Positions 15,053-46,008 of a stretch of 64,000 nucleotides of DNA are shown piece after piece. Both the position numbers and the translations under genes were made by a program. The stretch is from positions 64,001 through 128,000 of the forward strand of contig CAVPOC010000008.1 of assembly GCA_963706955.1 (NCBI GenBank). Direction: 5' to 3'. The DNA comes from an uncultured Verrucomicrobiae bacterium. Lineage in GTDB: Bacteria; Verrucomicrobiota; Verrucomicrobiia; Chthoniobacterales; Terrimicrobiaceae. Below the pieces are notes generated by a model, which was given only the letters and a program-made list of their open reading frames with translations, searched no databases and was not told where the DNA came from. The number at the start of each line of letters is the position of its first letter. Position 1 is the stretch's first letter.

Positions 15053-15386
15053 CTTTTCCTCGGTTCTGCGGCGGGCTCCCGAGAACCGCTTTAGATAGCC
15101 CCTCTCCCCGTAAATATGCTGACGATCGTCCGGTAGATCAAGCGGTAACGTAGAGAGGCTCGTCCATCCCGGTTTTTCACAAACGATTGCCGCAAAGCAG
15201 CACGACGGCATCTTAAGAAATGGCTTCGAACGGAAGCCTTTTAGGGACTTCAACTTGCGCAGGAGCCTTTAGAAAGTCCAATCGCTGCTGACTGTACGCC
15301 GCTTGGCGACTCTCCCGCGCCTTCTAACCAACAGAGCACGTTCAGAGCTTGACTCCTTCAAACTTTCTTCCAGCATCGTGAGCGGA

Positions 15387-24830: not shown

Positions 24831-25217
24831 GTGGGAATGCCAGCAGCAAAGAAAGGCGACCAGATCACGGCGGAGGACGTGCACCTTATACAGCCGCCTG
24901 GGACCTTTCCACCAGTGCCCACACAACATCCATTTCGAGGGATTATCACGGGAAGCGTGAGCACTAACGTCAACATCATGGGAAAGCCAGCCGCCATGGT
25001 AAATAGCACTGCGACGAATACGCCGGCGCATCTTCCCATTGGCGGTACTTTCGTGAAACCACCCGCTAACCGCGGCTTGATCATTCGGGGGAGCGCGACG
25101 GTCTTTATTAGTGGCCAACCGGCGGCGCGCAACGGTGACATCGCCATGACGTGCAACGATCCCGCCGATCTGCCAGTCGGCAGCGTCGTCGCTAAGGGAA
25201 ATGTGTTCATTGGCTAA
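24831..25217 (+). CDS. PAAR-domain spike tip protein
   Basis: PAAKKG, NVNIMGKPAA, GSATVFISGQPAARNGD, CNDP, NVFIG. Confidence 0.9.
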   Translation: MGMPAAKKGDQITAEDVHLIQPPGTFPPVPTQHPFRGIITGSVSTNVNIMGKPAAMVNSTATNTPAHLPIGGTFVKPPANRGLIIRGSATVFISGQPAARNGDIAMTCNDPADLPVGSVVAKGNVFIG

Positions 25218-25329: not shown

Positions 25330-25746
25330 ATGAATGGTGAATCAGATCAACGCAATGAGTTCCTGGGAACAGGAATCGCGTTTCCGCTCAGCGTAACCGA
25401 GGAGGGACTGCTCGCGATGAATGCCCTGGATGATCATGTCCGACAATCCATCCTGCTGATCCTGCAGACCGCCAGAGGCGAGAGGGTGATGCGCCCCGGT
25501 TTCGGATGCGATCTCAACGAGCTTGTATTTGAGCCCCTCAGGCAGACAACCTTCACGCTTGCCGAACATCATGTTAAGGAGGCATTAATCCGATACGAGC
25601 CGCGGATTGAGGTGCTGGGTGTTCAGGTCGGCGTGAACCCAGAGCAGCAGGATGGCCTCCTTATTCGCCTCCGATATCGCGTTCGATCCACCGACACCAC
25701 TTTTAACCTCGTTTACCCGTTTTATGTGGAAAGGGGAGGTTTGTAA
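25330..25746 (+). CDS. GPW/gp25-family baseplate wedge protein (Afp9-like)
   Basis: FLGTGIAFP, SILLILQTARGERVMRPGFGC, YEPRIEV, NLVYPFY. Confidence 0.92.
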   Translation: MNGESDQRNEFLGTGIAFPLSVTEEGLLAMNALDDHVRQSILLILQTARGERVMRPGFGCDLNELVFEPLRQTTFTLAEHHVKEALIRYEPRIEVLGVQVGVNPEQQDGLLIRLRYRVRSTDTTFNLVYPFYVERGGL

Positions 25747-29286: not shown

Positions 29287-30318
29287 ATGCCGCTGCCAAT
29301 TCCCCCTCTCGACGATCGCAGTTTCGACCAATTGGTGGACGAGGCCAAGGCGCTAATTCCAAAACACTTTCCCGCCTGGACCGACCACAACTTTTCTGAC
29401 CCCGGCATCGCGTTTCTGGACCTGTTCGCCTTTCTCATGGAGAACGCGATTTACCAGATCAACCGCGTCCCAGAACGATCGCTCGAACATTTCGCCAGCC
29501 TGCTGGGGGTGGCGCGCCGACCGAGTGAACCCATCGAGATGTTGTTTCGGAGAGTTCGCGAGAAGTTAGACACGCGTGAGCGTGCGATCACTGAGAATGA
29601 AATAGAGCAGCAGATCCTCGCGCAACCGAAGGAGCGGTGGCGGCAAGAACAGAAAATCGCCCGGGCCGAAGTGATCCTGGATTTACAGGCCGCCGACGAT
29701 GTGCGCCATCCGGAACTAACGTTAAAGATCGTCATTGTCCCTGAACCAAGTTCCGAAGAGGACAGTGCTCCAGTGCCTGCCGATAAGCTTCGCCAAGACA
29801 TCTTTGAATTCCTTAGTGAGCGGGTTCTGATTGGCACCCGGCTTAAGATAGTGCCTCCCGACTATTATTCTTCTTTTCAACTTAGAGCTACTGTCGTTCG
29901 CAGCGGCCAGAGCACACTCGATCGGGCGACCGTCCGTCGCAATGTGGCGAACGCGGTTCGCAAATTTCTCCATCCCACTCTCGGCGGCAAGGACGGGCGT
30001 GGCTGGCCATTGGGACGGTCGATCTTTCGGTCGGAGCTCTACAAGGTGATCGAAGGTCTTCCCGGCGTTGACCATGTCCGCGAGTTGCTCCTTCTCGATA
30101 GCCAAGAGGTTCATACCCGCGAGTCTACCGGTGGCGATGCATCGGTCTCTGCGCGACTCGGGGCGGAGTTGTTGTCGCCGGCGGCCGCTCCGCTCCTTCC
30201 GCTCTCAGCGAATCAGCGCCACTCGCCCGAGACCGTCTCGGAGCTGCCTCTGCCCGGGCCCAGCTCGCTCATTCGGTGGACTGAGCGAAGCTTCGAAGTG
30301 ACGGTCGTAGATGAATGA
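29287..30318 (+). CDS. second baseplate J-like protein
   Basis: From ATG29287: MPLPIPPLDDRSFDQLVDEA..IP...PAWTDHNFSDPGI; FLHPTLGG.DGRGWPLGRS..RSELY..IEG.PGVDHV. Confidence 0.85.
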   Translation: MPLPIPPLDDRSFDQLVDEAKALIPKHFPAWTDHNFSDPGIAFLDLFAFLMENAIYQINRVPERSLEHFASLLGVARRPSEPIEMLFRRVREKLDTRERAITENEIEQQILAQPKERWRQEQKIARAEVILDLQAADDVRHPELTLKIVIVPEPSSEEDSAPVPADKLRQDIFEFLSERVLIGTRLKIVPPDYYSSFQLRATVVRSGQSTLDRATVRRNVANAVRKFLHPTLGGKDGRGWPLGRSIFRSELYKVIEGLPGVDHVRELLLLDSQEVHTRESTGGDASVSARLGAELLSPAAAPLLPLSANQRHSPETVSELPLPGPSSLIRWTERSFEVTVVDE

Positions 30319-31472
30319 CGGGAACAAAACGAATGCCTAATCATTCCACACGTCCGATTCAATTCCGCGACTATCTCCCGGAGCTTTTGCGTGGGGATGA
30401 GTCAGACGCTAACAGCTTCCAGAATCGCTTCCTTAAAGCCTTTGAAGACTTATTCGAAGAGCTGCAAAGCGTCATCGAAGGCGTTTCATCAGGAGATCTC
30501 CAACTGATTGCCGATTCCGTGCCATCCTCCGTGGACGGTTCCCAGAAAATACAAATCAACCTGAGATCGCCTCCCGATAAGCCGCCAAAATTCCCGGCCG
30601 ATACCTTCGTCACGCTCGCGCGAGGTGACACCGACTCCACCACGCTCGCGGAGGAATATCCCGGAAAGAATCCTCAATCGCTTTTTGTCCGAGATGCCGA
30701 CTTTGCCCATTCGGTAGCAGCGGGAGACGAAATCGTCCTCCACGCCGGTGGTTTGCCAGACTTGTTCAACCCTGATCTGACACCGCCCCCACAGCTCGCC
30801 CGCCGGCTTCACCTGCACGAATACCAAGTGGATCCCGATTCCACCTTTCTGAATTTTCTGGCCAGCTGGATCGGCCTGCCGTTGCGTAACGAGCTCATCC
30901 CTCGGGGAGGTGAAACCGATCCCCAGGGCCAGCTGCGGGTCGATGACGGATGGTACGAGCGACGCAAGGCCCGCTGGAATCGACACCTTGTGCGCAGCGC
31001 CTTGGACATCTATCCCCGACGTGGCACGCGCGCAGGTGTTGAAGGAATGCTCCGAGCCTGGCTCAAAGATGACCTCGGTGAGAACGGAGTTATGGTCACT
31101 GACCTCTTGCGCGCTTATACGGATGTCGATGCCGTTTTTCAGTTGGGCGTCCGGGCAACTCTGGGAGTTGACACTGTCCTTGGCGAGGGGCCTCCCTTCT
31201 TCTTCGTCACCGATCTGGTGGTGGATCCCACGGTGCGCGGGCTGCGCAATCCGGCCGGAATTGATGTTTTCATTCGTGAGGCTCGATTCATCCTGGAAGC
31301 GGAGACCCCGGCCCACACCTATTTCCAGCTCCGGGTCCATGCCCAGACAATGCAATTGGCGCCGCCGCCAGGGCAGGAGGTCGCCGGCGAGATTTATGCT
31401 CAGCTGGGTGAAACCACATTGTTGTGGGGTGAGCCGTCGATCTTCCTTTCGACGCCTACCGAACAACCATGA
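30315..31472 (+). CDS. phage tail protein I-like (P2 gpI family) baseplate protein
   Basis: DYLPEL, FLKAFEDLF, FNP, FLNFLASWIG, IYPRRGT, E.PAHT. Confidence 0.8.
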   Translation: MTGTKRMPNHSTRPIQFRDYLPELLRGDESDANSFQNRFLKAFEDLFEELQSVIEGVSSGDLQLIADSVPSSVDGSQKIQINLRSPPDKPPKFPADTFVTLARGDTDSTTLAEEYPGKNPQSLFVRDADFAHSVAAGDEIVLHAGGLPDLFNPDLTPPPQLARRLHLHEYQVDPDSTFLNFLASWIGLPLRNELIPRGGETDPQGQLRVDDGWYERRKARWNRHLVRSALDIYPRRGTRAGVEGMLRAWLKDDLGENGVMVTDLLRAYTDVDAVFQLGVRATLGVDTVLGEGPPFFFVTDLVVDPTVRGLRNPAGIDVFIREARFILEAETPAHTYFQLRVHAQTMQLAPPPGQEVAGEIYAQLGETTLLWGEPSIFLSTPTEQP

Positions 31473-31528: not shown

Positions 31529-32557
31529 ATGCCTGAAGACAACATCAACAAGCGAATGTATTATTTCGACCGTCAATTCTTGCGAGCCCGCGATTTCAAG
31601 GTCGAGCAGCAATATCATATCGACCGCCACCGCCGGCATAATCGCCTGCTGCATACGCCGGGAGTGGCCACGCCGCATGATCTTACGGTTATGGGTGAGG
31701 AGGGAGATCTTTTGATAACAGTGACCGCGGGCACGGCGATAGACAAAGAGGGTCGTGAAATCATACTCCTAAAGCCAAGACCAATAACTCTCCCTTTCGA
31801 ATTGGGTGAGACTCTCGAGGTTGTCATAAATTTTCAGGACAAGCCGGACGATCGGAGCAGTGATCCCGGCCTGGATGACTTCACACGGGTCACCGAAGAA
31901 CCCAATGTTCAGATCGTTGGCTCTGAGATAACACCCGAGCTCAAGCAAATGATCAATGAAGGCACCGCGTTCCGGCTGGCGAGGATGGAGGTGGTGATCG
32001 ACGACAATGCCAAAACAGCGAAGTTAAAGGCCGATCCAGACAACTCCATTCGGACCCTGGCCGGCATTGTCGCCGGCACGGGCACCACCTTCGCAACCGT
32101 TACAGCGAGCAGCCTCGAGCTCAAAAAGGGAAACACGTCAACGGTCCAAATCACAAATGATGGCGTCATAAGAAGTCCGAAATGGAAGGTGACAGAGATA
32201 TTCAAGAATAGACGCGCCGAGGCTACGGAACCCAACACGGTTTTCTTTACGAACAACAATCAATTCGAATCTGCCGGCGGCACCTTGCTGATTTTCGCGT
32301 CTGGTTCCGGGACGGCAAAACAAATTCCGGCAGGTCAATCCGTCGTCATCGGCGTGCAACTGCTATTGGACGATGCCGGTATTGGCGAAGTCCAAAGCGT
32401 CGTTAAGAACCAAGACCCCCAGCCATTTGTGACCACTTTCCTAACTGTCCGCAACGTGGCGTCAGGAATCCATAAGCTGACACTGAAAACTTTGGGAAAT
32501 ACGACGGTGGGCGGAAATGACTTTTTCAACGCCACCATCCTTGAACTGCCTTTCTGA
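31529..32557 (+). CDS. baseplate-anchored tail fibre or adaptor protein
   Basis: N-terminal KRMYYFDRQFLRARDFKVEQQYH...HNRLLHTPGV, V.AG.AID..GREI as in eCIS fibre anchors; C-terminal beta domain ending TILELPF. Confidence 0.75.
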   Translation: MPEDNINKRMYYFDRQFLRARDFKVEQQYHIDRHRRHNRLLHTPGVATPHDLTVMGEEGDLLITVTAGTAIDKEGREIILLKPRPITLPFELGETLEVVINFQDKPDDRSSDPGLDDFTRVTEEPNVQIVGSEITPELKQMINEGTAFRLARMEVVIDDNAKTAKLKADPDNSIRTLAGIVAGTGTTFATVTASSLELKKGNTSTVQITNDGVIRSPKWKVTEIFKNRRAEATEPNTVFFTNNNQFESAGGTLLIFASGSGTAKQIPAGQSVVIGVQLLLDDAGIGEVQSVVKNQDPQPFVTTFLTVRNVASGIHKLTLKTLGNTTVGGNDFFNATILELPF

Positions 32558-32608
32558 TTGTCCATTTTGAAGCTGAAGCATCACACATCATAAGATCGAA
32601 GACAGCTT

Positions 32609-34039
32609 ATGCCAATCGATCAAACTTTGCGCGGGCTAGCCCTGGAGATAAATGCATCCATTGATCCAGGCCTAGAGAAGCACCCGCTTCTCGAATATCG
32701 CTTCATTGATGGTGCCAGCACCCAAACGATTCTTGCGCGTGTCGAAGGGATACCGCAACCGGATGGTGGAGGCCAGTTGGCGTTTGAAACCAATGCGGGC
32801 GGCGATAGCACAACCCTGCGGATGCTTATTGATCGCCAAGGAAACGTGGGCATCGGGACGGAGAATCCGGCGGCTAGGTTGGATGTCGACGGCGACGCGA
32901 AGTTCCGCGGCCCGCTATCAATTGAAGGCGCTCTCACCGTAAGCGGTGTCGCGCAAATCGGTGGTGATCTGACCGTGGCGGGCAAGCTGACCGCCGCCAG
33001 CTTCGTGGGTAACGCCGAAGGATTGAGCAATATCACTCCGGCAGATAATTCGGTAACCAGCGCCAAATTAGCCCTCGATCCTGCCTCGCTTAGCAAAGTG
33101 TCAGGCGAAAGCATGGTCGCTCATGACGGCCAGATTGGAATTGGAATCCCGGCTCCTCGTTCCAAGCTGGAAGTTACAAGCGACTGGACTGGTGAACGCG
33201 GTGCGCTCGAATTGTCAGGTCACAAGCCAACGATACGACTTACAGGCGGATCGGACCTAGCAAATCGCTCCTGGATCATTCATCTTGGAGGCAATGGGCC
33301 CGGAGATTTGGAATTTTATAAGAAAAGCCCTTCAGATCGACAATGGATGTTCCGGATGGCACTCACAGAGAGTGGAATCACTAAAATTCCCAAGCTTCAA
33401 CTAGGCAATAAATGGCTTTTGTCGGGAGAGGGCGATGCGCACGCGAACGATGACTGGCTGCGTCTTTTTAGTATCCAGGGCACCGGTTATTTCGGCGGAT
33501 TTGCGGCAGAAAAGCTTTATAGCGGAACTACTACATTTACACAAAAGCTTCAATTAGGCAGTAAATGGCTTTTATCGGGAGCGGGCGATGCTCATGGGAA
33601 TGATGACTGGCTGCGTCTTTTTAATGTCCAGGGCGATGACTATTTCGGCGGATTTGCAGCAGCGAAGCTTTATAGCATAGGGGGTACCGTTCACGGATCA
33701 GACCTTCGCTTAAAGGCAGACGTCTCTTCGCTGGAGCGCATGGTCGATAAAATTCTCGCTTTGCGCGGTGTGCGTTTCAAGTGGCGCAATGCGAGAGACG
33801 AAGATTCTTATCGAATTGGTCTAATTGCACAGGAGGTTGAACGCGTGCTCCCGGAAGTAGTAGAAACAGGGCCAGACGGTATGAAAGGCATTAACGCAGC
33901 CGGACTTGTCGCTGCCATTATCACTGCCATTAAAGACCAGCAGGCCGAACTTAGCGCACTGCGGACCGAATTTGCTCTCTTCACCCTGCGTAAGAGGAAG
34001 GATCCGCGAACGACGTGCCGACCAGCCGATGCTTGTTGA
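32609..34039 (+). CDS. fibre-like protein F1 (MPIDQ module; peptidase S74 chaperone C-terminus)
   Basis: Shared N-module; GNVGIGT repeats; SDLRLK..I.ALRGVRFKW..IGLIAQEVE.VLPE. Confidence 0.85.
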   Translation: MPIDQTLRGLALEINASIDPGLEKHPLLEYRFIDGASTQTILARVEGIPQPDGGGQLAFETNAGGDSTTLRMLIDRQGNVGIGTENPAARLDVDGDAKFRGPLSIEGALTVSGVAQIGGDLTVAGKLTAASFVGNAEGLSNITPADNSVTSAKLALDPASLSKVSGESMVAHDGQIGIGIPAPRSKLEVTSDWTGERGALELSGHKPTIRLTGGSDLANRSWIIHLGGNGPGDLEFYKKSPSDRQWMFRMALTESGITKIPKLQLGNKWLLSGEGDAHANDDWLRLFSIQGTGYFGGFAAEKLYSGTTTFTQKLQLGSKWLLSGAGDAHGNDDWLRLFNVQGDDYFGGFAAAKLYSIGGTVHGSDLRLKADVSSLERMVDKILALRGVRFKWRNARDEDSYRIGLIAQEVERVLPEVVETGPDGMKGINAAGLVAAIITAIKDQQAELSALRTEFALFTLRKRKDPRTTCRPADAC

Positions 34040-34195
34040 CAATCACGGTAGAATCGTCATCGGATGGAGAGGAAATTGCCTCGTTGCATGTGGTCGTGGC
34101 ATTGAGTTCGTCAGGGATGCCGCCGTGGCAGCGGTGAGAAGCATGTGAGAACCGTACTCTCGCCATCAAAATCGACCTCAGACAGGAGATAGCTT

Positions 34196-35452
34196 ATGCC
34201 GATCGATCAGACCATACGTGGCCTTGCTTTAGAAATAGATGCATCCACCGATGCAGGACCGGAAACGCAGCCGCTCCTCGAATATCGCTTCATCGATAGT
34301 GCCAGCACCCAAACGATTCTCGCTCGCGTCATAGGTATACCGCAAGCCAATGGGGGAGGAAAGTTGGCCTTTGAAACTAACGCGGGAGCTGCTGCCACGA
34401 CCCAGCGGATGCTTATCGACAACAATGGCAATGTCGGCATCGGAACGGCCAGTCCCGGAGCCAGATTGGATGTCGCCGGTGACGCGAGGTTCAGCGGACC
34501 ATTGTCACTTCAAGGCGCTCTCAAAGTGGATGGCGTCGCGCAAATGGGTGGTGATTTTGAGGTGGCCGGCGACGGAAAGTTTAGCGGGACGCTCAGCGTC
34601 CAGGGAGCTTTCACGACAAGTGGCGCCGCGAGAATTGGTGGAGACTTGACAGTAACGGGCAGGCTGGCTGCAGCCACTCTCACCGGCGATGGTGCCGGAC
34701 TAAGCAACGTGACACCAGCAGACAATTCGATAACTAGCGCCAAACTAGCCCAGGATCCCGCTTCAATCTCCAAAATCACGGATGGAAAGATAGCCGTTAA
34801 CGCTGACAGATTGGATCTGACCGGCCACACGACCTTGAACGGTTCAATAAACATCCTCAGGGGGCTCACAGCCGGGTCTTTCGAGCAGAATCCCAACTCC
34901 CAAATTTACGGGAATCTGCACGTCCAGGGGAGGTTAACTGCCGGTGTAAAGACGTTCCGGATCGATCACCCACTTGACCCTGAGAACAAGTATTTATCTC
35001 ATTCCTCAGTCGAATCTCCGGACGTGATGAACATCTACAATGGCAACATCACCACGGATACGCAGGGCAATGCGACGGTAGTTTTGCCTGATTACTTCGA
35101 GGCTTTGAACCGAGACTTTCGTTACCAGTTGACGGTAATCGGCAAGCGTGCACAGGCAACTGTCGCTAGCGAAATCGAAAACAACCGCTTTACCATTAGC
35201 ACCGATCTGCCCTACGTGAAGGTCTCGTGGCAAGTGACGGGTGTTCGACAAGATGCTTCCGCTAGAGCTTTTCCGAATTCGGTGGAGGAAGAAAAGCCTG
35301 AGGCTGAGCGCGGTTTGTTCCTGCACCCGGACCATTATGGCTATCCCAGGGAGCGGGGAATCGCTTTCGCGCGGCATCCAGACCGTATGCACCACCCGCC
35401 CGCGGAGCGGCCAAACCTAGTGCCATGCCATAACGCCGCGGCCATCGAGTAA
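34196..35452 (+). CDS. fibre-like protein F2 (MPIDQ module; KxFxIDHPLDP-type C-terminus)
   Basis: Shared N-module with a duplicated 30-aa shaft repeat; KTFRIDHPLDPENKYLSHSSVESP..LPDYFEALN.DFRYQLTVIG..VSWQVTG.R. Confidence 0.85.
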   Translation: MPIDQTIRGLALEIDASTDAGPETQPLLEYRFIDSASTQTILARVIGIPQANGGGKLAFETNAGAAATTQRMLIDNNGNVGIGTASPGARLDVAGDARFSGPLSLQGALKVDGVAQMGGDFEVAGDGKFSGTLSVQGAFTTSGAARIGGDLTVTGRLAAATLTGDGAGLSNVTPADNSITSAKLAQDPASISKITDGKIAVNADRLDLTGHTTLNGSINILRGLTAGSFEQNPNSQIYGNLHVQGRLTAGVKTFRIDHPLDPENKYLSHSSVESPDVMNIYNGNITTDTQGNATVVLPDYFEALNRDFRYQLTVIGKRAQATVASEIENNRFTISTDLPYVKVSWQVTGVRQDASARAFPNSVEEEKPEAERGLFLHPDHYGYPRERGIAFARHPDRMHHPPAERPNLVPCHNAAAIE

Positions 35453-35490
35453 TTGACTTCTCTCCATGGTCTGAAGAAAAAAGAAAGCTT

Positions 35491-36354
35491 ATGCCCATCG
35501 ATCAAACCTTTCGTGGTCTTGCGCTGGAAATAGATGCGTCCTCTGATCCCGCGCCCGCAGCCCATCCGCTCCTCGAATACCGGTTCATTGATCTAGCCAG
35601 CACCCAAACGATACTTGCACGTATCATCGGAATACCGCAACCGAATGGTCGAGGCCAGTTGGCCTTCGAAACTAATGCGGGAGCTGCTGCCACGACCGAG
35701 CGAATGCTAATCGACAGCAATGGCAACGTGGGCATTGGAACTGAGAATCCCGGAGCCAGATTGGATGTCGCCGGTGACGCGAAGTTTAGCGGACCATTGT
35801 CAATTCAAGGTGCTCTCAGAGTGGAGGGTGTCGCACAAGTCGGTGGAGATCTAAGCGTGACGGGCAAGCTGACCGCCGGCAGCTTCGCCGGCGACGCCGC
35901 AGGATTGAGCAATGTCACACCGGCGAATGGCTCCGTAACCAGCGCCAAACTAGCGTTCGATGCTGCCTCGCTCAGCAAAGTCTCGGGCGGCAAGATGGTC
36001 GTCCAAGGAGATACTGTCGCCATACGCGGACAACTCGAGGTCAACGGAGCTGTCAAGTTTCAAGGGTCCGGGTCGACCACGCCCGGCTCCACCGACTGGC
36101 AGCCTTACCCCGGCAACATCGGCATCTACCTGGACGTGGACACCAGCGCCGGCCAGTTCACCACCACGCCCAAGTATTTTACGTCGCTCGGCGGCAACTC
36201 GCACCACTGGGCGACCACCGGCGTCACCTCTATCTACACGCCTTCGCCCACGGGCTTTCGGGTGTACGTGCGCTGGGCGGACGGCAGCGCCCTGACGCCA
36301 GAGTTTGCCAATTCCCTCCAATGGCACGTTAATTGGCTCGGAGTCGAAGCCTAG
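35491..36354 (+). CDS. fibre-like protein F3 (MPIDQ module; Trp/Tyr-rich tip domain)
   Basis: Shared N-module; C-terminal WQPY..GIYLDVDTS...YFTSLGG.SHHW..TG..SIY.....GFRVYVRW...WHVNWLG; no chaperone domain. Confidence 0.85.
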   Translation: MPIDQTFRGLALEIDASSDPAPAAHPLLEYRFIDLASTQTILARIIGIPQPNGRGQLAFETNAGAAATTERMLIDSNGNVGIGTENPGARLDVAGDAKFSGPLSIQGALRVEGVAQVGGDLSVTGKLTAGSFAGDAAGLSNVTPANGSVTSAKLAFDAASLSKVSGGKMVVQGDTVAIRGQLEVNGAVKFQGSGSTTPGSTDWQPYPGNIGIYLDVDTSAGQFTTTPKYFTSLGGNSHHWATTGVTSIYTPSPTGFRVYVRWADGSALTPEFANSLQWHVNWLGVEA

Positions 36355-36454
36355 CGGAACGGGTTATTGCGAGTCTATGTTCCAGGTGCGCTGCAGAAAC
36401 CAGGCAAGTTGTGTGGCCTTTGCGTTGAGCACGCGGAATCCGCAAGGGACCCGG

Positions 36455-36663
36455 ATCCGGCAAGATGTCTCAGCGAAGGCGTTTCCGAATTCGGTGGAGC
36501 AAGAGAAGCCTGAGGCCATGCGCGGTTTGTTCCTCCACCCGGAACATTATGGCTATCCGAGAAAGCGGGGCATCGATTTGACACGCCAGCCAGATCGTAT
36601 GCACGATCCCCGGCACCGCGGCCACGCCTTGTACCATGCCCTGGCGCTGCGTCCATCGAGTAA
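36455..36663 (+). pseudogene. orphaned 3' end of an F2-type fibre gene
   Basis: Encodes RQDVSAKAFPNSVEQEKPEAMRGLFLHPEHYGYPRKRGI, nearly identical to the F2 C-terminus RQDASARAFPNSVEEEKPEAERGLFLHPDHYGYPRERGI. Confidence 0.8.
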
Positions 36664-36691
36664 CTAGTTTTCTCCATAGTCAAAAAAAATC

Positions 36692-38155
36692 ATGCCCATC
36701 GATCAAACCTTGCGCGGCCTTGCTCTGGAAATAGATGCATCGCTCGATCCCGTACCCGAAGCTCAGCCGCTCCTCGAGTACCGATTCATCGATCTTGCCA
36801 GCACTCAAACCATCCTTGCGCGAATCAAAGGGGTTCCGCAACCCAATGGTCGAGGCCAATTGGCCTTTGAAACTAACGCGGGAGCGACCGCCACCACCCA
36901 ACGAATGGTTATTGACCATAATGGCAACGTCGGCATTGGAACTGAGAATCCCGGAGCCAGATTGGATGTCGCCGGTGACGCGAAGTTTAGCGGACCATTG
37001 TCGGTGCAAGGTGCGCTCAGGGTGGAGGGCGTTGCGCAGGTCGCTGGTGATTTAAGCGTGACGGGCAAGTTGACCGCCGCCAGCTTTGCCGGTGATGGAG
37101 GAGAGTTGAGCAATGTCCGACCAAGGAACGATTCGGTCGGAGGTGCGCAACTGGCAAGCGACCCGGAATCTCTGAGCAAAGTGTCGGGCGGCAAGATCAT
37201 CGTTAAAGGGGACCGGGTTGGTGTGGGCATGCAAAATCCCGACGGCGATTGCGTCTTTGCCGTGGGAGCTCGTATGAAGGTCCACCAAGGAGACAGTAAC
37301 AGCGCTGGGATTTGGTTTGCTCAAAAAGGAGCAGACCTTCACGCTTCGGCTTTTGTTGGCATGGCAGATGACAACACAATAGGGTTCTACGGCCATGGAG
37401 TGGGATGGGGTCTGAAGATGAGAGGGGATGACGGCTCGGTTACCCTGGCTGGTGCGCTAAGTGTCGGAGGCAAAGTCAGTCTCGCTTCCCTGGGCGTCAG
37501 TGGAGAAATCCGCGTTGCCGGCCGGGATCCCGTCATTGGCGGAGAAGCTCTGCGTTCCACCTTTGGCCGGAGACGATCCGGTGGTTCCTTCGCTCTGAGG
37601 CAGACTTTTCACGATGTGGATATCAATGGCGAAGTCCATTGTAACAAAATTACCACTCCGGCCGGTAAGGGCTTTAAGATAGATCACCCTCTGGATCCCG
37701 AGAACCGGAATCTGTATCACTGGTGCGTCGAATCGCCCGACATAATGAACATCTACAATGGCAATGTGATTACCGACGTTCGTGGTAAAGCGACCGTGGT
37801 GTTGCCGGAGTACTTCGAGGCATTAAACGAGGATTTTCGCTATCAGTTAACCGTCATCGGCCAGACCTCAGTGGCCACGGTCGAACGTGAAATAGAAAAC
37901 AACACATTTACGATTCGAACCGACAAGCCGGAAGTGAAGGTATCCTGGCAGGTGACAGGTCGGCGGCAGGATCCCGCCATCCGCGCGAATCCTCTGCCTG
38001 TGGAGGAAGAGAAGCGCGGAACCGAGCGTGGGTTTGTTGCTTATCCGCAAAATAGAAAGCAGAACAAATTTTCCCTTACCGGTTTCGATAGCGGCCAGGT
38101 AATCGTCAAGACGGAGGAAGGCTGCGAGCATCCCCTGCCCGTGGCTTATTCTTAG
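36692..38155 (+). CDS. fibre-like protein F4 (MPIDQ module; KxFxIDHPLDP-type C-terminus)
   Basis: Shared N-module; unique middle (SAGIWF..AFVGMADDNTIGFYG..GWGL); GFKIDHPLDPENRNLYH.CVESP. Confidence 0.85.
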   Translation: MPIDQTLRGLALEIDASLDPVPEAQPLLEYRFIDLASTQTILARIKGVPQPNGRGQLAFETNAGATATTQRMVIDHNGNVGIGTENPGARLDVAGDAKFSGPLSVQGALRVEGVAQVAGDLSVTGKLTAASFAGDGGELSNVRPRNDSVGGAQLASDPESLSKVSGGKIIVKGDRVGVGMQNPDGDCVFAVGARMKVHQGDSNSAGIWFAQKGADLHASAFVGMADDNTIGFYGHGVGWGLKMRGDDGSVTLAGALSVGGKVSLASLGVSGEIRVAGRDPVIGGEALRSTFGRRRSGGSFALRQTFHDVDINGEVHCNKITTPAGKGFKIDHPLDPENRNLYHWCVESPDIMNIYNGNVITDVRGKATVVLPEYFEALNEDFRYQLTVIGQTSVATVEREIENNTFTIRTDKPEVKVSWQVTGRRQDPAIRANPLPVEEEKRGTERGFVAYPQNRKQNKFSLTGFDSGQVIVKTEEGCEHPLPVAYS

Positions 38156-38346
38156 GCGAGATCTCGTAACACATGGGACCGAGACATCAGTTTGACAAGG
38201 ACCCGCGATCATGCCGACTTTTCATAAGTGTTTTAACATGCACGGCAATCGAATCGTCTCGGAAAGGCTCTAAGGGAAAGTGAGACTTTTCTCTCTGAGA
38301 CTTGTTTCGTAGTCGTTGGAATTCCTCCCGCAGAAAAAAGACAATT

Positions 38347-40086
38347 ATGCCCATCGATCAAACCTTGCGCGGCCTTGCTCTGGAAATAGATGCATCGCTC
38401 GATCCCGCACCCGAAGCTCAGCCGCTCCTCGAATACCGGTTTATTGATTTAGCCAGTACCCAAACGATACTTGCGCGTATCACCGGAATACCGCAACCCA
38501 ATGGTGGAGGCCAGTTGGCCTTTGAAACTAATGCCGGATCGACTGCCACGACCCAGCGGATGCTTATCGACAACAATGGCAATGTCGGCATCGGAACGGC
38601 AAGTCCCGGAGCTAGATTGGATGTGGCCGGTGACGCGAAGTTCAGCGGACCGCTATCCATTCAAGGTGCTCTGTCAGTAGAAGGGACCGCGCAAATTGGT
38701 GGTGATTTGAGCGTGACGGGCAAACTGAGCGCCGCCAGCTTTGCCGGCGATGCAGCCGGATTGAGCAATGTCATACCGGCAGACAACTCCGTAACCAACG
38801 CCAAATTGGCCTTGGATCCCGCCTCGCTCAGCAAAGTGTCGCACGAGGTGATGGTTGCTAGTGAAGCTAATATTGGAATTGGGGCATCCGCTCCGCGGTC
38901 CAAACTGGAAGTCACAAGCGACTGGACCGGTGAACGCGGTGCGCTCGAGGTGTCTGGTCACAAGCCAACGATACGATTTACCGGCGGATCGGATTTAGCA
39001 GAACGCTCCTGGATCATTCATCTTGGAGGCAATGGACCCGGAGATTTGGAATTCTATACAAAAACCCCTTCCGATGCAAATTGGGCTGCCCGCATGCTGC
39101 TGACGCAGCACGGGGTGAACGTCGTTGGATCACTTTCCGGAACGAGCAATAACCCAGGGCTTGCCGGCGTTCACGGTGTGCACACGGCCGGCCAAGCGGC
39201 CGTCATCGGAACGAGCGATGCGGGACGCGGTGTCCTTGGAATCAGCAAAACTGGACAGGGCGTCTGGGGGGCGAGCGAGTCGTCAGCAGGTGTGGTGGGA
39301 GTGAGCGTGAAAGGGGAAGCTTTCAGAGGGGAAGGAGTTTCCGGTGTCGTGGGAATAGGCAAGGGCTGGGTGGGGGTTTACGGGGAAACTAACGGAGCGC
39401 GAAACGTTGGCCCGGCCGGCGTGTGGGGCGAGGGAAAACAATCGGGAGACGGCGTCAAGGGAGTGACCAGCGCCGCCAACGCTGCGGGAGTTGCGGCATT
39501 TCACCTCACCAATCAGGGGCCAGGCATTTTCGCGCAAGGTGCCCCAGCCGGACTCTTCAACGGAGATGTGACTATCAACGGAAGGTTGCGTGCTTCTGTT
39601 AAATCATTCGTGATTGACCACCCGCTCGACCCAGCCAACAAGTACCTCTCTCATTCCTCGGTCGAATCTCCTGACTTGATGAACATCTACAGTGGCGAGG
39701 CTGTCACCGACAGCGAGGGTCACGCGACTATCACGTTGCCTGACTATTTTGGCGCCTTGAATCGTGATTTCCGTTATCAATTGACGGTAATCGGAAAGTT
39801 CGCGCAGGCGATCGTAGCCAGCGGAATCGAAAACAACCGCTTTTCTATCAAAACTGACCAGCCCGACGTGAAGGTCTCATGGCAAGTAACCGGCATCCGT
39901 CAGGACGCTTCCGCCCGGGCGCTTCCCACCCGCGTCGAAGAAGAGAAACCTGCAGCTGAGCGTGGTTTGTTCTTGCATCCCGAACATTACGGTCATCCCA
40001 GTGACCGCGGAATCGCTTCCAAACATTATACAGAGGCGACGCAAGAGCGGCCGACACTGCAGAACATCCCCAGTTTATCGCAATAG
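38347..40086 (+). CDS. fibre-like protein F5 (MPIDQ module; GVxG glycine-rich repeats; KxFxIDHPLDP-type C-terminus)
   Basis: ATG38347 MPIDQ; module shared with F1; GVHG/GVLG/GVWG/GVVG/GVYG repeats; KSFVIDHPLDPANKYLSHSSVESP. Confidence 0.85.
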   Translation: MPIDQTLRGLALEIDASLDPAPEAQPLLEYRFIDLASTQTILARITGIPQPNGGGQLAFETNAGSTATTQRMLIDNNGNVGIGTASPGARLDVAGDAKFSGPLSIQGALSVEGTAQIGGDLSVTGKLSAASFAGDAAGLSNVIPADNSVTNAKLALDPASLSKVSHEVMVASEANIGIGASAPRSKLEVTSDWTGERGALEVSGHKPTIRFTGGSDLAERSWIIHLGGNGPGDLEFYTKTPSDANWAARMLLTQHGVNVVGSLSGTSNNPGLAGVHGVHTAGQAAVIGTSDAGRGVLGISKTGQGVWGASESSAGVVGVSVKGEAFRGEGVSGVVGIGKGWVGVYGETNGARNVGPAGVWGEGKQSGDGVKGVTSAANAAGVAAFHLTNQGPGIFAQGAPAGLFNGDVTINGRLRASVKSFVIDHPLDPANKYLSHSSVESPDLMNIYSGEAVTDSEGHATITLPDYFGALNRDFRYQLTVIGKFAQAIVASGIENNRFSIKTDQPDVKVSWQVTGIRQDASARALPTRVEEEKPAAERGLFLHPEHYGHPSDRGIASKHYTEATQERPTLQNIPSLSQ

Positions 40087-40155
40087 GGCCCTGGGCCGCT
40101 CCCATCGGGAACCCTGCAATCCTAAGACTACCTCGCTGAGAAAGCAGACAGCTCT

Positions 40156-41010
40156 ATGCCAATTGATCAAAGCTTGCGCGGACTTGCTCTGGAAATCGAC
40201 GCATCACTCGATCCCGCACCCGAAGCCCAGCCGCTCCTCGAATACCGGTTCATCGATCTTGCCAGCACCCAAACAATTCTTGCGCGTATCAAAGGAATAC
40301 CGCAACCCAACGGTGGAGGCGAGTTGGCCTTTGACACAAATGCGGGAGGCAATGCCACGAGCCAGCGGATGCTTATTGATAGTAAGGGCAATGTCGGCAT
40401 TGGAACGGAAAATCCGGCGGCCAGATTGGATGTCGCCGGTGACGCGAAGTTCAGCGGACCGTTGTCAGTTCGAGGTGCTCTCACCGTAGATGGTGACACG
40501 CAAATCGGCGGTGATTTGAGCGTAACGGGTTCGCTCACCATAGCCGGCACGAACCTCAGGTTGACAAAAGCGGATTCGGCACGAGCGGTCGAAATCACCG
40601 GTGAAGGCGCAGTGATCAGTCCGATGTGGACTGTGACCCAGGTGTATTTGAATGAGCAGGCGACATCCACACCGTTCCCTGTCCCAGGCCAGCCTATTTG
40701 TTCTCCGAAGCCATTCACAACCGGAGGTGGCACCTTGCTGATTCTGGCGTCGGGGTCGGGAGCCGCACTCTCAGGGGTGCCGGGACCCATAATTATTGGA
40801 ATGGACTTGTTGCTTGACGATCGTCACGTGGGTAGCGTCCTTAGCCGCGTCAATAACATGACCGAGGCCAAACCATTTATGACCAGCGGTCTGGTGGTTC
40901 GCGGAATCGCTTCGGGATCCCATACCCTTACGCTGAAGACCGCTCCGTCGACGGTCGTTGGCCGCAACGATTTCTTTAATGTGACAATCCTTGAATTGCC
41001 GTTTCAGTAA
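40156..41010 (+). CDS. fibre-like protein F6 (MPIDQ module; tip homologous to that of 31529..32557)
   Basis: SPMWTVTQV..GGGTLLILASGSG..IGMDLLLDD..HTLTLKT..VGRNDFFNVTILELPF. Confidence 0.85.
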   Translation: MPIDQSLRGLALEIDASLDPAPEAQPLLEYRFIDLASTQTILARIKGIPQPNGGGELAFDTNAGGNATSQRMLIDSKGNVGIGTENPAARLDVAGDAKFSGPLSVRGALTVDGDTQIGGDLSVTGSLTIAGTNLRLTKADSARAVEITGEGAVISPMWTVTQVYLNEQATSTPFPVPGQPICSPKPFTTGGGTLLILASGSGAALSGVPGPIIIGMDLLLDDRHVGSVLSRVNNMTEAKPFMTSGLVVRGIASGSHTLTLKTAPSTVVGRNDFFNVTILELPFQ

Positions 41011-41067
41011 GCATCCAATCGCGACACCAGCAGCACCGATTAAACGACCTAAGGAAGGAGACAGCTT

Positions 41068-42495
41068 ATGCCAATCGACCAGACCTTACGGGGTCTTGCT
41101 CTGGAAATCGACGCATCCGTCGATCTCGCACCCGAAGCCCAGCCGCTCCTCGAATATCGGTTCATCGATCTTGCCAGCACCCAAACAATTCTCGCCCGCA
41201 TCAAAGGGGTCTCGGTCTCGACTGGCGGAGGCAAGTTGGCTTTTGAAACTAACGCGGGCACCGCTGCCACGACCCCGCGGATGCTTATTGACGATCAGGG
41301 CAACGTGGGCATTGGAACCGAGAACCCGGGAGCCAGACTGGATGTCGTCGGTGGCGCAAAGTTCAAGGGTCCGCTCGATATTCAGGGAGCTCTCACCGTG
41401 AGTGGCGTCGCGACGATTGGTGGGAATTTGACGGTCAGCGGAAAACTGACGGCAGGCAGCTTTGCGGGCGACGCTGCCGAATTGAGAAATGTCACACCAG
41501 CGGACGGCTCTGTGACCAACGCCAAACTCGCCCAGGATGCCGCTTCGCTTAGCAAAGTGACCGGCGGATCGATGGTCATGAGCGGCGGGAAGCTTGCCAT
41601 CGGAACCGAAAATCCGATCGCGAAGTTGCACATCCGGTCAGCCGCTGGTGACGTCCTCCCGCCACGCTTAGAGGCTTCGGACGCCGCAAGTTTCGCCGCT
41701 GGCTGGGACTTTTATCATGAGACCGCAGGGAAAGGTTACGTCGGGGTGCCAGGTTCCGCGACGGGGATCGCTCCGGGGGAGATGCTGCTCTTCGGGTCGG
41801 CGGGAACCAAGCTCTCGCTGTGGGCAGGAGGAAACAGAAGTCTCACCCTGGACACGAACGGCAACGTCGGCATCGGGACGACCGACCCGACTCACCGCTT
41901 TCACGTATCGGCGCCTGACGCCGTTGGGCTGTTTGAGTCCACCGGAAGCCAGGCCTATTTGCGACTGACCACCAGAGAAGGACTCGACAACCGAGTGGAA
42001 ATTACGAACCGACCCGGTGGACGATTAAGCCTATGGACGCCCGCGGGGGATGTATTAAACATCACCAGAGCGGGAATGGTCGGCATCGGCACCATCGCGC
42101 CGAGTTTCAACCTCGATGTCGCTGGCTTCGCTCATGCATCGAGCTTCCCGACCTCCTCGGACGCAAGATTCAAGACGAACGTCGCTCAAGTTCGCGGCGT
42201 TCTTGAGAAGCTGAAGCAGGTTCGTGCGGTTTTCTTCGAGTGGAACGAGCATTATCGAACACTCGGCCGTTCAACCGGAAAGCGGGAAATCGGCGTGGTT
42301 GCTCAGGAGATCGAAGCTGTCTTTCCCGAGTTGGTAACCGAGTGGGGTGATAAGAAATACAAGGCACTTGACTACGGCCGCCTGGCCGCAGTCCTACTCG
42401 AAGCGGTCAAGGAACTTGCGGCGCATAGTGAGATCTTGAGCCAACAGGTCCGAGACCTGCAAAAGGCAACCGCACGCAATATGCCAAACTGCTAG
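41068..42495 (+). CDS. fibre-like protein F7 (MPIDQ module; peptidase S74 chaperone)
   Basis: Several G.VGIGT..P repeats; SDARFKTNV..V.FEWN..IGVVAQEIE.VFPELV..LDYGRL.AVLLEAVKEL. Confidence 0.87.
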   Translation: MPIDQTLRGLALEIDASVDLAPEAQPLLEYRFIDLASTQTILARIKGVSVSTGGGKLAFETNAGTAATTPRMLIDDQGNVGIGTENPGARLDVVGGAKFKGPLDIQGALTVSGVATIGGNLTVSGKLTAGSFAGDAAELRNVTPADGSVTNAKLAQDAASLSKVTGGSMVMSGGKLAIGTENPIAKLHIRSAAGDVLPPRLEASDAASFAAGWDFYHETAGKGYVGVPGSATGIAPGEMLLFGSAGTKLSLWAGGNRSLTLDTNGNVGIGTTDPTHRFHVSAPDAVGLFESTGSQAYLRLTTREGLDNRVEITNRPGGRLSLWTPAGDVLNITRAGMVGIGTIAPSFNLDVAGFAHASSFPTSSDARFKTNVAQVRGVLEKLKQVRAVFFEWNEHYRTLGRSTGKREIGVVAQEIEAVFPELVTEWGDKKYKALDYGRLAAVLLEAVKELAAHSEILSQQVRDLQKATARNMPNC

Positions 42496-42600
42496 TAGTA
42501 ATTTCTCCAGTGTGATAATGCCCGACTGCTATTTTGATTCTCAATAGGACGATTATTGCCTCTACTGAGTAGCAGCTATCGGAATCGACTAAGGTACTTT

Positions 42601-44173
42601 ATGCCAATCGATCAAACCTTGCGCGGGCTTGCTCTGGAAATCGACGCATCCAATGACCCGGCCCCAGAAACGCAGCCGGTCCTTGAATATCGCTTCATCG
42701 ATCTTGCCAGCACGCAAACGATTCTCGCTCGCGTCAAAGCAATACCGCTAGCCAGCGGCGGAGGCGAATTGGCCTTTGAAACCAACGCAGGAACCGATAC
42801 CACGACCCCGCGGATGCTTATTGACGATCAAGGCAATGTCGGCATTGGAACGGAGGAACCAGCCGCCAGATTGGAAGTCGCCGGCGACGTCAGATTCAAC
42901 GGCCCGCTCGATATCCAAGGGGCCCTCACCGTAAGTGGCGTCGCCACAATCGGTGGCGATTTAAACGTCGCGGGAAAACTGAACGCAGGCTAGCTTTGCG
43001 GGTGATGCGGCCGAATTGCGCAATGTCACACCAGCAGACGGCTCTGTGACCAATGCGAAACTGGCCCAGGATGCCGCTTCGCTTAGCAGAGTGACCGGCG
43101 GATCGATGGTCGTCAGCGATGGCAGGCTCGGAATCGGAACCGAAAATCCGATCGCGAAGTTGCACATACGGTCAGCCGCTGGTGAAGTCCTCCCGCCACG
43201 CTTAGAGGCTTCGGACGCTACAAGTTTCGCCGCTGGCTGGGACTTTTATCATGAGACCGCAGCGAAAGGTTACGTCGGGGTCCCAAATTCCGCGACGGGG
43301 ATCGCTCCGGGGGAGATGCTGCTCTTCGGGTCGGCGGGAACCAAGCTCTCGCTGTGGGCAGGAGGAAACAGAAGTCTCACCCTGGACACAAACGGCAATG
43401 TCGGCATTGGAACGACTGATCCCGACCGACCTCTCGCTATAACGGCGGTCCGCACATCCCAGGAGTTGATTAGCTTCAAAGATCCGAGTGGTGTCACCAG
43501 ATGGCACATCAACCAAAACTTGGGCGGGTCGTTTGCGGGCTTGAACTTCGTGGAATCACGCGTGGCCGACGGCAGGCTGTTTCTTAAAGCCGGCGGGAAT
43601 GTGGGCATCGGAACAGTCAATCCGGAACGCAAGCTGCAGATTGGCGACGATGTTATTGGTTTGGGTTTCGACCCGGGAACCTCGCCCAATGCAGGTGTCC
43701 TCCGTTTCGGCGACAATACCGGATGGAAATTGCATTTCGGCCGTTCCCGCGAAGCGAGCGGGGGTGCGCTGAATCGCGGGACCGCTGGGTTACTGATGAC
43801 GATTCAGGATAACGGCAACGTCATTGTGAAGGGGTCGGTTCAGGCTCGTAGCTTTCCTACGACGTCCGATGCAAAGTATAAGACCGACATCGCACCTTTA
43901 ACTGGTGTCTTGGCAAAATTGGACAAGTTGCGCGCAATAGTATTTTCGTGGAATGGTCTGCCTGAGTCTCAAGATCACTGCGCGGACCGCAAAGAAATTG
44001 GAGTTATCGCCCAAGAGGTCGAAGCCGTCTTTCCTGAATTAGTGACAACATGGGAGGGGCGCTACAAAGCAGTTGAGTATGGTAGGTTCTCCGCCGTGCT
44101 CCTTGAGGCTGTTAAAGAGTTGAAGGCAAAGGTTGATGCCTTGGCGCAGAGAACTGCACCGTTAGGATCTTGA
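42601..44173 (+). pseudogene. fibre-like protein F8 (MPIDQ module; peptidase S74), split by a 1-bp insertion at 42991
   Basis: gcaggcTagctttgcg versus gcaggcagctttgcg in F7; the extra T creates TAG. ORFs 42601..42993 and 43016..44173 join into a full fibre. Confidence 0.8.
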
Positions 44174-44218
44174 GCAAAGGACGATTCGATAGATCCAGAG
44201 CCTCAGAACGAACAAATT

Positions 44219-44449
44219 ATGCAACAACAGATCCAATCCAGGATTGCGGTTTTAAAAAGTGAATTCGAGACCGGCCAAACAAAACTCCAGGAACTCGAAC
44301 TGCAACAGTCACGAATCCGCGAAACGCTCTTGCGCATCAGTGGCGCCATCCAGGTCCTCGAGGAGATGCTCGAGTCAAACAAAGCCGAGGAAGAACCGGC
44401 GCCGAACGACTCCGTTCCGGCCGAACCCTCCGCCGTTGGCAAGGGCTGA
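44219..44449 (+). CDS. small coiled-coil protein at end of the eCIS operon
   Basis: MQQQIQSRIAVLKSEFETGQTKLQELELQQSRIRETLLRISGAIQVLEEML; heptad pattern, co-oriented directly after the fibres. Confidence 0.7.
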   Translation: MQQQIQSRIAVLKSEFETGQTKLQELELQQSRIRETLLRISGAIQVLEEMLESNKAEEEPAPNDSVPAEPSAVGKG

Positions 44450-44766: not shown

Positions 44767-46008
44767 TCATGCAAAACGGTTTTTTGAGAGATATTTCGAC
44801 CACCCTGTCCTCTGATCAAAGGAGAGCTTCTCGTAGGTCTTCCTCACACTGTCGAAAGAGTAATTGGATGTTGGATACCAAAAGGCGAGGCCATGAGAAT
44901 TCTGAACTGCTGGGCCGAGAGCGGCCGAATGGATGCGACTATCGTCAAATGCGGCGATAATTTGATCGCAACTAGCCTTCACATCCTCTGCAGTTGCCGT
45001 GGATTTTAGTTTTTCGGCAAAATCGCGAATGTCAAAGGTATCGCGCCGCGCGAAAGACTGTGAATCAAGAACGGCTAACTTTAGCCACTTCATGCCTTCG
45101 GTAGCATGAGGACTAAGGACGTCCACCAGCCCTTTCATTGCATCCGTTAGTTGATTATCGGTCCGAAACGCAGCGAGGGTGCATGGAAATTGATCTGGTC
45201 GATTTTTGTAGCCAACTTCAAACCCTTCGACGGCTTGTCTGGCCCACTCGACTGCATCTGCCGGGGGCGAGTCGCTCATCAGACCAAACCACTCGTGGTA
45301 CTCCCACCCGTCTCCTGGTTCGAGATCCTCCGATCCGACGACCACCTCGGCGAATTCCTTGAACTGATCCAAAACCTCAATCATCCCATTTAGACAGGTA
45401 TCCGAAAAAATCAGATCAACCTTTTTTCCCTCCATTCCTGCCCTCGAGAAAGCCGCCTTGAGAACACCGTGAGCCTCATAATTGGTCAAAACGCCACCGT
45501 TTGTGTCATCATGCAGCATTGCGCGCAGCTCGGGCTCAGCCGCGAGCTTCGAAGGGGAGACGAACAGCTGTCGCGCCGGCACAGAACGACTGCGACGATG
45601 GCGCGGAACAGCCCTCAACCGACGTTCCAGATACGTCTCATTCGGATCGTGCTCATCGAAGACACCGCTTCCGTGATCCCAAAACCCGATCGCCTTGTGA
45701 GGCACTTTCTTCGTTGTCACCAAACTTCGCGCGAGAAAGCTGGCCAACGTTTCGGGATCGCCGGTATCAATCTCTCCGAGCGATTCGACAACATGAAGGC
45801 CCGCGCTCGGGGTGAGAGCCATGACTTTGGCCTCGCCATCTTCGAAGTCTGAAAGGGCGATGACTGCGAAGGGACCCCTGTTGCCTGCAGCCATTTCTTG
45901 AAGGTCTTCGATGACATATGCATTCAGGTTATTGTCGCCACCGAAGATCTCGATGACTACGTGGGTTACATTCGAAAGATCAATGGGAATGGGTATGGGC
46001 GTTGCCAT
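44767..46008 (-). CDS. clostripain-family (peptidase C11) cysteine protease
   Basis: GGDNNL, DLQEM, EIDTGDPETL..F, FWDHGSG (His), DLIFSDTCLNG..E (Cys), SEDLEPG.GW.Y, GLAFWYP. Confidence 0.8.
   Translation of the reverse strand: MATPIPIPIDLSNVTHVVIEIFGGDNNLNAYVIEDLQEMAAGNRGPFAVIALSDFEDGEAKVMALTPSAGLHVVESLGEIDTGDPETLASFLARSLVTTKKVPHKAIGFWDHGSGVFDEHDPNETYLERRLRAVPRHRRSRSVPARQLFVSPSKLAAEPELRAMLHDDTNGGVLTNYEAHGVLKAAFSRAGMEGKKVDLIFSDTCLNGMIEVLDQFKEFAEVVVGSEDLEPGDGWEYHEWFGLMSDSPPADAVEWARQAVEGFEVGYKNRPDQFPCTLAAFRTDNQLTDAMKGLVDVLSPHATEGMKWLKLAVLDSQSFARRDTFDIRDFAEKLKSTATAEDVKASCDQIIAAFDDSRIHSAALGPAVQNSHGLAFWYPTSNYSFDSVRKTYEKLSFDQRTGWSKYLSKNRFA

Follow-up and report, generated by a model that had tools for sequence, protein, structure and literature searches.

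Work is under way to turn extracellular contractile injection systems (eCISs) into programmable protein-delivery devices; what they target depends on the fibres they carry. In phages, several receptor-binding proteins (RBPs) are reportedly held on one particle by conserved N-terminal anchors, as in the branched tailspike complex of the Ackermannviridae and in phi92 and PhiKp24. In a survey of 2585 eCIS loci published in 2026, more than one fibre was recorded in 23.4% of the loci, with a maximum of five per locus, five N-terminal anchor classes (eBAP1-5) were distinguished, and Tail_P2_I-type baseplates with TssK-like fibres were proposed to be polyvalent (PMC12923769, accessible part). In the Anabaena tCIS, a Cis13 trimer binds the baseplate via its N-terminal domains, and a C-terminal extension of Cis11 contacts Cis13 (PMC8894136, accessible part). 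Exported MAT fibres are displayed on the cell surface of Bdellovibrio bacteriovorus; the constructs studied start after residue 20 (PMC10769870, accessible part). The locus described here lies in a 64,000-nucleotide stretch, called the window below (positions 64001-128000 of contig C8, CAVPOC010000008.1), of the Terrimicrobiaceae (Verrucomicrobiota) metagenome-assembled genome (MAG) GCA_963706955.1 (handle G000; 4.16 Mb, 15 contigs). According to Pfam and NCBIfam matches, the window contains a full eCIS operon on the + strand (15303-44449), in which one fibre gene with a predicted Cis13-like anchor (fib0) is followed by eight fibre genes (F1-F8) that share a different N-terminal block.

We lean, by a modest degree, towards the reading in which F1-F8 belong to the eCIS particle as fibres and their common front end may serve as an attachment and trimer-start module presenting many tips beside fib0. 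As in the multi-RBP phages, a conserved N-terminal attachment part would be combined with exchangeable distal parts to give multi-specific particles; the phage anchors are named domains with solved interfaces, whereas the present anchor is putative and belongs to a non-replicating eCIS. These phages and the Bdellovibrio MAT fibres, which are not linked to a contractile injection system (CIS), may be regarded as the closest functional analogues. As far as the accessible part of PMC10769870 describes them, the MAT fibres (8OML, 8ON4, and 8OND) are likewise chimeric trimeric paralogues with an invariant N-terminal domain, Peptidase_S74 (S74) or non-S74 ends, tips of the TNF-like and lectin kinds, and a shaft repeat found here as well; unlike them, the F proteins lack a signal peptide, are much shorter, and are encoded in tandem within an eCIS operon. 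In the accessible part of PMC12923769, the eBAP3 and eBAP4 loci resemble this one in the Tail_P2_I-like adaptor, the fibres downstream of J and I, the shoulder-anchored first fibre, and the S74 and C1q/TNF-like tips. The present locus differs from that catalogue in having nine fibre genes against a maximum of five and eight front ends that are neither shoulder nor helical bundle. The terms Verrucomicrobi, Terrimicrobi, MPIDQ, and GNVGIGT were absent from those supplement files of the paper that are searchable as text; one PDF without text and one large file outside the search may bear on this. Literature searches turned up no account of an eCIS with an array of this kind. Multi-fibre eCIS loci and anchor classes are thus already known, which makes outdated the statement, made in the original prediction for this DNA, that characterised eCISs use a single fibre; what is new is a larger array than published, on an undescribed module.

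The original prediction, made from the sequence alone, had proposed eight co-oriented genes with a nearly invariant starting block and diverging tips. This picture was confirmed for the positions and the + strand of all eight genes, which lie within 32609-44173 between fib0 and the coiled-coil gene cc76 (Table 1); seven of them are open frames and the eighth is split. In an alignment of the first 130 residues of the eight proteins, 71 columns were invariant and the mean column identity was 86%. At the DNA level, the block corresponds to eight direct repeats of 300 nucleotides (nt) with 75-86% identity, each beginning 13 nt 5' of the ATG. The likeness of the eight starts is far above chance, and no other copies of the module occur in the G000 genome. 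The proteins, with lengths from 284 to 579 amino acids (aa), all begin with MPIDQ(T/S) as read from the sequence and have no hydrophobic leader, which fits an assembly of the particle inside the cytoplasm.

Past residue ~175 the F proteins diverge into at least four tip classes: S74 (F1, F7, and F8; the C-terminal PF13884 matches are all above the gathering score), an unnamed distal domain (F2, F4, and F5), a small unnamed tip (F3), and a TNF/C1q-like head (F6). An internal tandem duplication of 132 nt (33392-33676, copies 86% identical) has given F1 two distal units of ~45 residues before S74. In a structure search with the AlphaFold2 (AF2) model of F6, the head (residues 154-284) resembled the Bc2L-C lectin (Z 10.2), Pgp3 (Z 10.0), and C1q (Z 9.5), a likeness of fold only, with no sequence family match. 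It is paralogous to the fib0 head (fib0 residues 190-342, 47% identity), and the models predict a jelly-roll head in both proteins. The separation of fib0 from the eight, as originally proposed, therefore holds for the anchor, which is absent from all of them, and not for the head. PDB sequence searches gave nothing credible for the F2-type tips, the F3 tip, fib0, or the I-like baseplate protein.

The shared block was matched by no Pfam or NCBIfam family, nor had it been recognised as a named family in the original prediction, and Pfam matches at E up to 10 were at chance level only. Its description as an unusual module, however, held only for residues 1 to ~42. Residues 54-100 match the shafts of Bdellovibrio MAT fibres (8oml_A, E 1.2e-7; 8on4_A, E 1.4e-6; 8ond_A, E 8.5e-4) and, at positions internal to the profiles, also the PHROG tail-fibre families phrog_9942 and phrog_18345. 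At E <= 0.001, a 130-position profile recovered 135,444 representative proteins. The top 150 range in length from 1,788 to 7,920 aa, and the profile matches each of them in 15-65 places; of the 2,875 stretches matched in these 150 proteins, 2,024 begin at profile positions 50-69 and only 150 before position 40. This search is dominated by giant repeat proteins and is informative only for positions ~50-100, that is, for the generic repeat. The internal repeats of congener fibres match the profile from position 43-52 on. On the strength of these matches, residues ~43-130 are one unit of a widespread fibre repeat followed by the first shaft turns.

Residues 1 to ~42, by contrast, are genus-specific and the sole special part of the block. 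Residues 1-55 are common to 147 protein clusters (of 171 candidates) with at least five distal classes; among the 120 clusters listed, identity over this region is 78-100%, lengths are 268-626 aa, and the first six residues are the same in 113. For residues 1-58, no distant homologue was detected in 400 other Verrucomicrobiota genomes, and no match was obtained in 17 anchor-bearing and four secondary fibres of distant metagenome loci (all E > 6). The module showed no similarity to the fib0 anchor in alignment. In the AF2 monomer model of F6, it forms strands at residues 27-33, 39-49, 55-61, 69-74, and 80-82, and residues 1-110 contain no helix of four or more residues, in disagreement with the ~50-residue helical bundle of eBAP1 and eBAP2. 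The shaft is unstructured in this model, as expected for a chain folding only as a trimer. Every listed match in the structure search covers the head domain and none the module. In the ESM Atlas, the clusters nearest to residues 1-100 with a name are T4_gp9_10_N and PTL_trimer (scores 0.89-0.90), which are leads only.

The fib0 protein is built differently. Residues 11-130 match CIS13_fam (NF053767, profile positions 8-128) with E 2.2e-13, a domain-level match of 50 bits against the equivalog cut-off of 370, so that its N-terminal domain is probably homologous to Cis13 at the level of the domain. In structure comparisons of the model, residues 9-192 resembled TssK (5y0e; Z 7.8, root-mean-square deviation 6.7, 152 aligned residues) and the whole length resembled the RBP of lactococcal phage 1358 (4l92; Z 9.4, 256 aligned), both with middling Z scores, and residues 216-342 matched TNF/C1q-like heads at Z 9-10 (Pgp3, 10.2; C1QL1, 9.9), again in fold only and with no sequence family match. 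Set beside the Anabaena Cis13 in the accessible part of PMC8894136, fib0 has a matching N-terminus, and its TNF/C1q-like head stands in place of the transmembrane helix.

A total of 41 related genomes were compared, and a module match was counted as strong when it reached profile position 22 or lower. Strong matches were found in seven genomes (G000, G001, G004, G009, G010, G015, and G016), and the I-like baseplate gene is present in exactly the same seven; the remaining 34 lack it and have either no module match or, in three genomes, a weak match to the generic repeat. Confinement of the module to eCIS loci, which the original prediction had suggested checking, was thus borne out at the genome level for the N-terminal part, and not for residues ~43-130, which are widespread elsewhere. 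The gene order J-J2-I-fib0-[two to six module genes]-cc76 is found in G001, G010, G009, G015, and G004, and partially in G016. The arrays comprise six module genes in G001 and G010, five in G015, four in G004 (the first split), two in G009, and at least one in G016, where the contig ends; the occurrence of the module in arrays was thereby confirmed in congeners. An F6-like gene with a fib0-type head is included in the arrays of G001, G010, and G015.

Four further copies are unlinked orphans, one in G001 (contig C36) and three in G004 (two on C11 and one on C7); G010, G009, and G015 have none, and none were seen in G016. The orphans occur in eCIS-positive genomes only, lie among housekeeping genes, and keep the N-terminal type of their own genome. 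Three homologous types were distinguished, uniform within each genome: A in five genomes, B in G015, and C in G004. On contig C11 of G004 (L028:6899-11665), far from the eCIS locus, a 980-aa eCIS_core (DUF4157) cargo gene is directly followed by an orphan S74 module fibre, a satellite pair suggesting that the system can gain a cargo and a targeting part jointly and in trans.

Scanning metagenomes with the fib0 alignment yielded 79 loci, of which 43 were analysed by script and the rest judged too short by eye. At least 2.5 kb of downstream sequence was available in 24 of the 43, three pairs among the 24 looking like copies of one sequence. In two of the 24 (L054 and L105), a fib0-like gene is followed by two fibres with another, unrelated common N-terminus; two more pairs sharing an N-terminus were noted in the scan, one consisting of cargo proteins and one of whole-length paralogues. 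Many of the other loci encode a long repeat-type fibre in fusion with a Cis13-like anchor; such shafts are therefore normal fibres of this machine.

Nonsynonymous (dN) and synonymous (dS) divergence was estimated for the modules. The 28 paralogue pairs of G000 gave dN 0.12-0.13 and dS 0.84-0.85 (dN/dS about 0.15), so module conservation in this genome does not stem from recent copying. Values of dS among module paralogues were 1.26 in G004, 0.54 in G009, 0.42 in G001, and 0.34 in G010, and dN/dS was about 0.12-0.15 in G000 and G004. In the module tree, sequences group by genome and not by tip. The modules are thus shaped by purifying selection and, in some lineages, by homogenisation as well. 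The distal parts seem to have followed their own course: between F4 and its G001 orthologue, dS was 1.00 for the module against 0.34 for the distal region, pointing to different histories of tips and modules, and dN/dS of the F6 head was about 0.05. The 337-nt gap behind F3 holds a non-coding relic of an F2-type 3' end, with 80% nucleotide identity to 35230-35397 and 66% aa identity over 70 residues; it is best read as the scar of a tip replacement. Module joints that keep the register were found in metagenome contigs of runs X10 and X8 (40245 to 41158 and 40519 to 34560). The former omits 912 nt, equal to the spacing between the F6 and F7 starts. These joints may stem from unequal crossing-over within the population, or the assembly may have produced chimeras over 35 shared letters. 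No invertible segment or inverted repeats were found in the array, apart from one short palindrome, and promoter-like and terminator-like sites did not exceed shuffled expectation.

Under the favoured reading, the eight genes would produce trimeric phage-type fibres of the eCIS particle, in which residues 1 to ~42 together with the first repeat unit would provide attachment and the start of the trimer. Different shafts and tips would then be mounted at one kind of site in the baseplate region, and fib0 would be added alongside through its own TssK/Cis13-like shoulder anchor. The repeated 5' module would also act as a recombination substrate for tip exchange and changes in copy number. That the F proteins attach physically and are co-assembled is what we infer from these data; the I-like adaptor, the J C-terminus, and fib0 are candidate attachment sites. 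Eight fibre types for a baseplate of six-fold symmetry would make for a mixed or multi-specific population of particles, and the nine fibres probably let one machine recognise many targets.

Several observations weigh against this reading. The greater part of the block is the generic repeat, and residues 1-20 of the special part are modelled with low confidence in F6. The five modules of G015 differ by a dS of only 0.09, the values for G001 and G010 are intermediate (0.34-0.42), and uniformity within a genome can also come from gene conversion. Across six congeners, no clear covariation was found between module type and the J C-terminus, J2, I, fib0, or cc76; in G015 the J C-terminus has diverged somewhat further, in a region that is variable everywhere. 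The I-like protein carries, by alignment, an inserted domain of ~85 aa at residues ~60-143, which occurs in its relatives in no copy (~265 aa), one, two (~470 aa; G009, G015, and G004), or three. As a marker of secondary fibres this insert was rejected: locus L092 has it without a secondary fibre, and G009, of type A, has the two-insert form. The window sequence was present in 20 DNA runs from eight soil or rhizosphere studies, and no RNA run containing it was among the 24 runs listed. Finally, F8 is broken in the assembly by a stop after 130 codons, with another frame from 43016 and a one-base insertion near 42987-42991. The two frames are rejoined in one contig of metagenome run X6, which is without one base at 42987; three other runs had no coverage there. 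Fibre or I-like genes of congeners also have split frames (L026:13668-15159 in G004, L021:6093-7248 in G010, and L024:13436-14825 in G015), and their occurrence in several MAGs points to possible single-base assembly errors, which bears on the F8 split.

We consider it unlikely that the block has no specific docking role and is merely the first shaft repeat with a start region, its uniformity being due to folding constraints and to recombination or gene conversion, with the proteins acting off the particle (for example, as lectin-like fibres freed at lysis) or only some of them being used. A block that is generic in its majority and evident concerted evolution would suit such an explanation, as would the existence outside CISs of tandem fibre arrays with a common front end and swapped tips, exemplified by the Bdellovibrio MAT fibres (PMC10769870, accessible part). 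It is harder to reconcile with the strict co-occurrence with eCIS, the position of the array, always inside the operon between fib0 and cc76, the lack of a secretion signal in the F proteins, and the unlinked orphans that keep the type of their genome. Moreover, dS of 0.84-1.26 in G000 and G004 at the low dN/dS given above points to selection and not to recent conversion.

The order of the genes, with fib0 directly before the array in all seven genomes, would also suit a branched arrangement, in which fib0 is the sole baseplate-anchored protein and the eight F fibres hang on it as phage tailspikes hang on an adaptor spike. The single polypeptide of Cis13-like anchor and repeat shaft in distant loci makes a split into anchor and fibres plausible, but the model depicts fib0 as already a complete shoulder-neck-head RBP with its own TNF/C1q-like head. 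In addition, fib0 residues 61-240 share 23-47% identity among the type-A genomes, in which the modules share 79-85%; a conserved docking surface should have diverged less, and we hold this arrangement to be quite improbable. Still more doubtful to us is an array that mainly stores alternative tips, recombined in register via the 5' module, with few fibres deployed at once per cell line. The relic behind F3, the in-register joints, and array sizes of two to eight among congeners are consistent with such a store, but an ATG, a conserved stretch upstream of it, and a full-length frame are found in every copy, and the tips are under purifying selection. An inversion device of the kind sought in the array is lacking, and the joints share 35 identical letters or stem from diverged relatives, so that they may be assembly artefacts.

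The eCIS assignment of the original prediction was upheld by Pfam and NCBIfam matches to the full gene set. Sheath, tube, VgrG-type spike, PAAR, gp25, J, AAA+ ATPase, Pvc16-like protein, and eCIS_core cargo occur in one locus, as in the Afp/PVC-like eCISs, which makes this an eCIS locus by gene content. The operon runs from the AAA+ ATPase through the Pvc16-like, sheath, and tube genes, two unnamed genes, CIS_tube/LysM, the VgrG-like spike, PAAR, gp25, J, a second J-like gene (J2), and the TIGR02242/Tail_P2_I-like gene (I-like) to the nine fibre genes and cc76, and the island is bordered by housekeeping genes. J2 is 32% identical to J residues 805-983. Five eCIS_core cargo genes precede the operon on the opposite strand; in that at 13721-14563, the match covers the last third of eCIS_core alone (profile positions 47-78), and an N-terminal truncation or a mis-set start is possible. 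A clostripain-family (Peptidase_C11) gene at 44767-46008 on the - strand faces the end of the operon.

Table 1. Features of the eCIS locus in the window (positions are those of the window).
Feature	Position	Strand	Description	Evidence
F1	32609-34039	+	Module, shaft, duplicated distal unit, Peptidase_S74 chaperone	PF13884 E 6e-14; repeat D7
F2	34196-35452	+	Module, shaft, distal domain common to F4 and F5; no named family	phrog_17490
F3	35491-36354	+	Module, short shaft, small unnamed beta-rich tip	No family, no PDB sequence match
Relic	36442-36609	+	F2-type 3' end, non-coding	
F4	36692-38155	+	Module, shaft, F2-type distal domain	
F5	38347-40086	+	Module, long Gly-rich shaft, F2-type distal domain	
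F6	40156-41010	+	Module, short shaft, predicted TNF/C1q-like lectin head	AF2 model, pLDDT 78
F7	41068-42495	+	Module, repeat shaft, Peptidase_S74 chaperone	PF13884 E 4e-14
F8	42601-44173	+	Module (42601-42993) and remainder with S74 chaperone (43016-44173)	PF13884 E 2e-15
fib0	31529-32557	+	Short RBP, predicted Cis13/TssK-like N-terminal shoulder and TNF/C1q-like head	AF2 model, pLDDT 85
cc76	44219-44449	+	76-aa coiled coil with acidic tail, last gene of the fibre region	
I-like	30315-31472	+	Tail_P2_I/TIGR02242-type adaptor (TssG-like per literature)	NCBIfam TIGR02242 E 7.5e-11, CIS12_fam E 3e-5
J2	29287-30318	+	Second J-like wedge protein, 343 aa	NCBIfam TIGR02243 E 4e-40, profile positions 484-658
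J	25746-29285	+	Baseplate J-like wedge protein, 1179 aa, Cis11/Afp11 position	Pfam Baseplate_J E 2e-21
gp25	25330-25746	+		Pfam
PAAR	24831-25217	+		Pfam
Spike	23105-24820	+	VgrG-like	Pfam
CIS_tube/LysM	22470-23096	+		Pfam
Tube	20191-20619	+		Pfam Phage_T4_gp19 E 6e-45
Sheath	18761-20152	+		Pfam Phage_sheath_1/1C
Pvc16-like	17861-18715	+		Pfam Pvc16_N E 3e-29
AAA+ ATPase	15303-17750	+	With winged-helix domain, Afp15-like	Pfam WHD E 6e-62, AAA E 7e-32
Cargo genes (five)	5268-5969, 8759-9928, 10718-11611, 11951-12937, 13721-14563	-	eCIS_core (DUF4157)	Pfam PF13699, E 1e-32 to 4e-11

The cc76 protein has no family in Pfam, NCBIfam, or PHROGs. Homologues with 41-86% identity stand behind the fibre genes in four congeners and in nine of the 15 distant loci inspected (41-66% identity in the latter: L105, L049, L066, L080, L093, L113, L101, L073, and L070). 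Since these include single-fibre loci, cc76 is a core gene of this eCIS lineage, and the array is an insertion that separates it from fib0. A general role in fibre assembly is conceivable for cc76, which in size and type presumably resembles T4 gp57A.

More tentatively, and as a possibility that we rate below even chances, the module may represent a sixth, non-eBAP anchor class by which a Tail_P2_I-type baseplate holds, beside fib0, a further tier of as many as eight fibres that can replace one another, giving particles of mixed specificity, with cargo and fibre satellites supplying pairs of target and toxin in trans. Catalogues based on anchors miss secondary fibres of this kind. If the favoured reading is true, a module that carries many tips and is distinct from the five anchor classes would be a plug-in scaffold for retargeting. 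The nine fibre genes, against the published maximum of five, would show the reach of polyvalence in eCISs, and the locus would offer a tractable case of the evolution of a fibre repertoire by in-register recombination.

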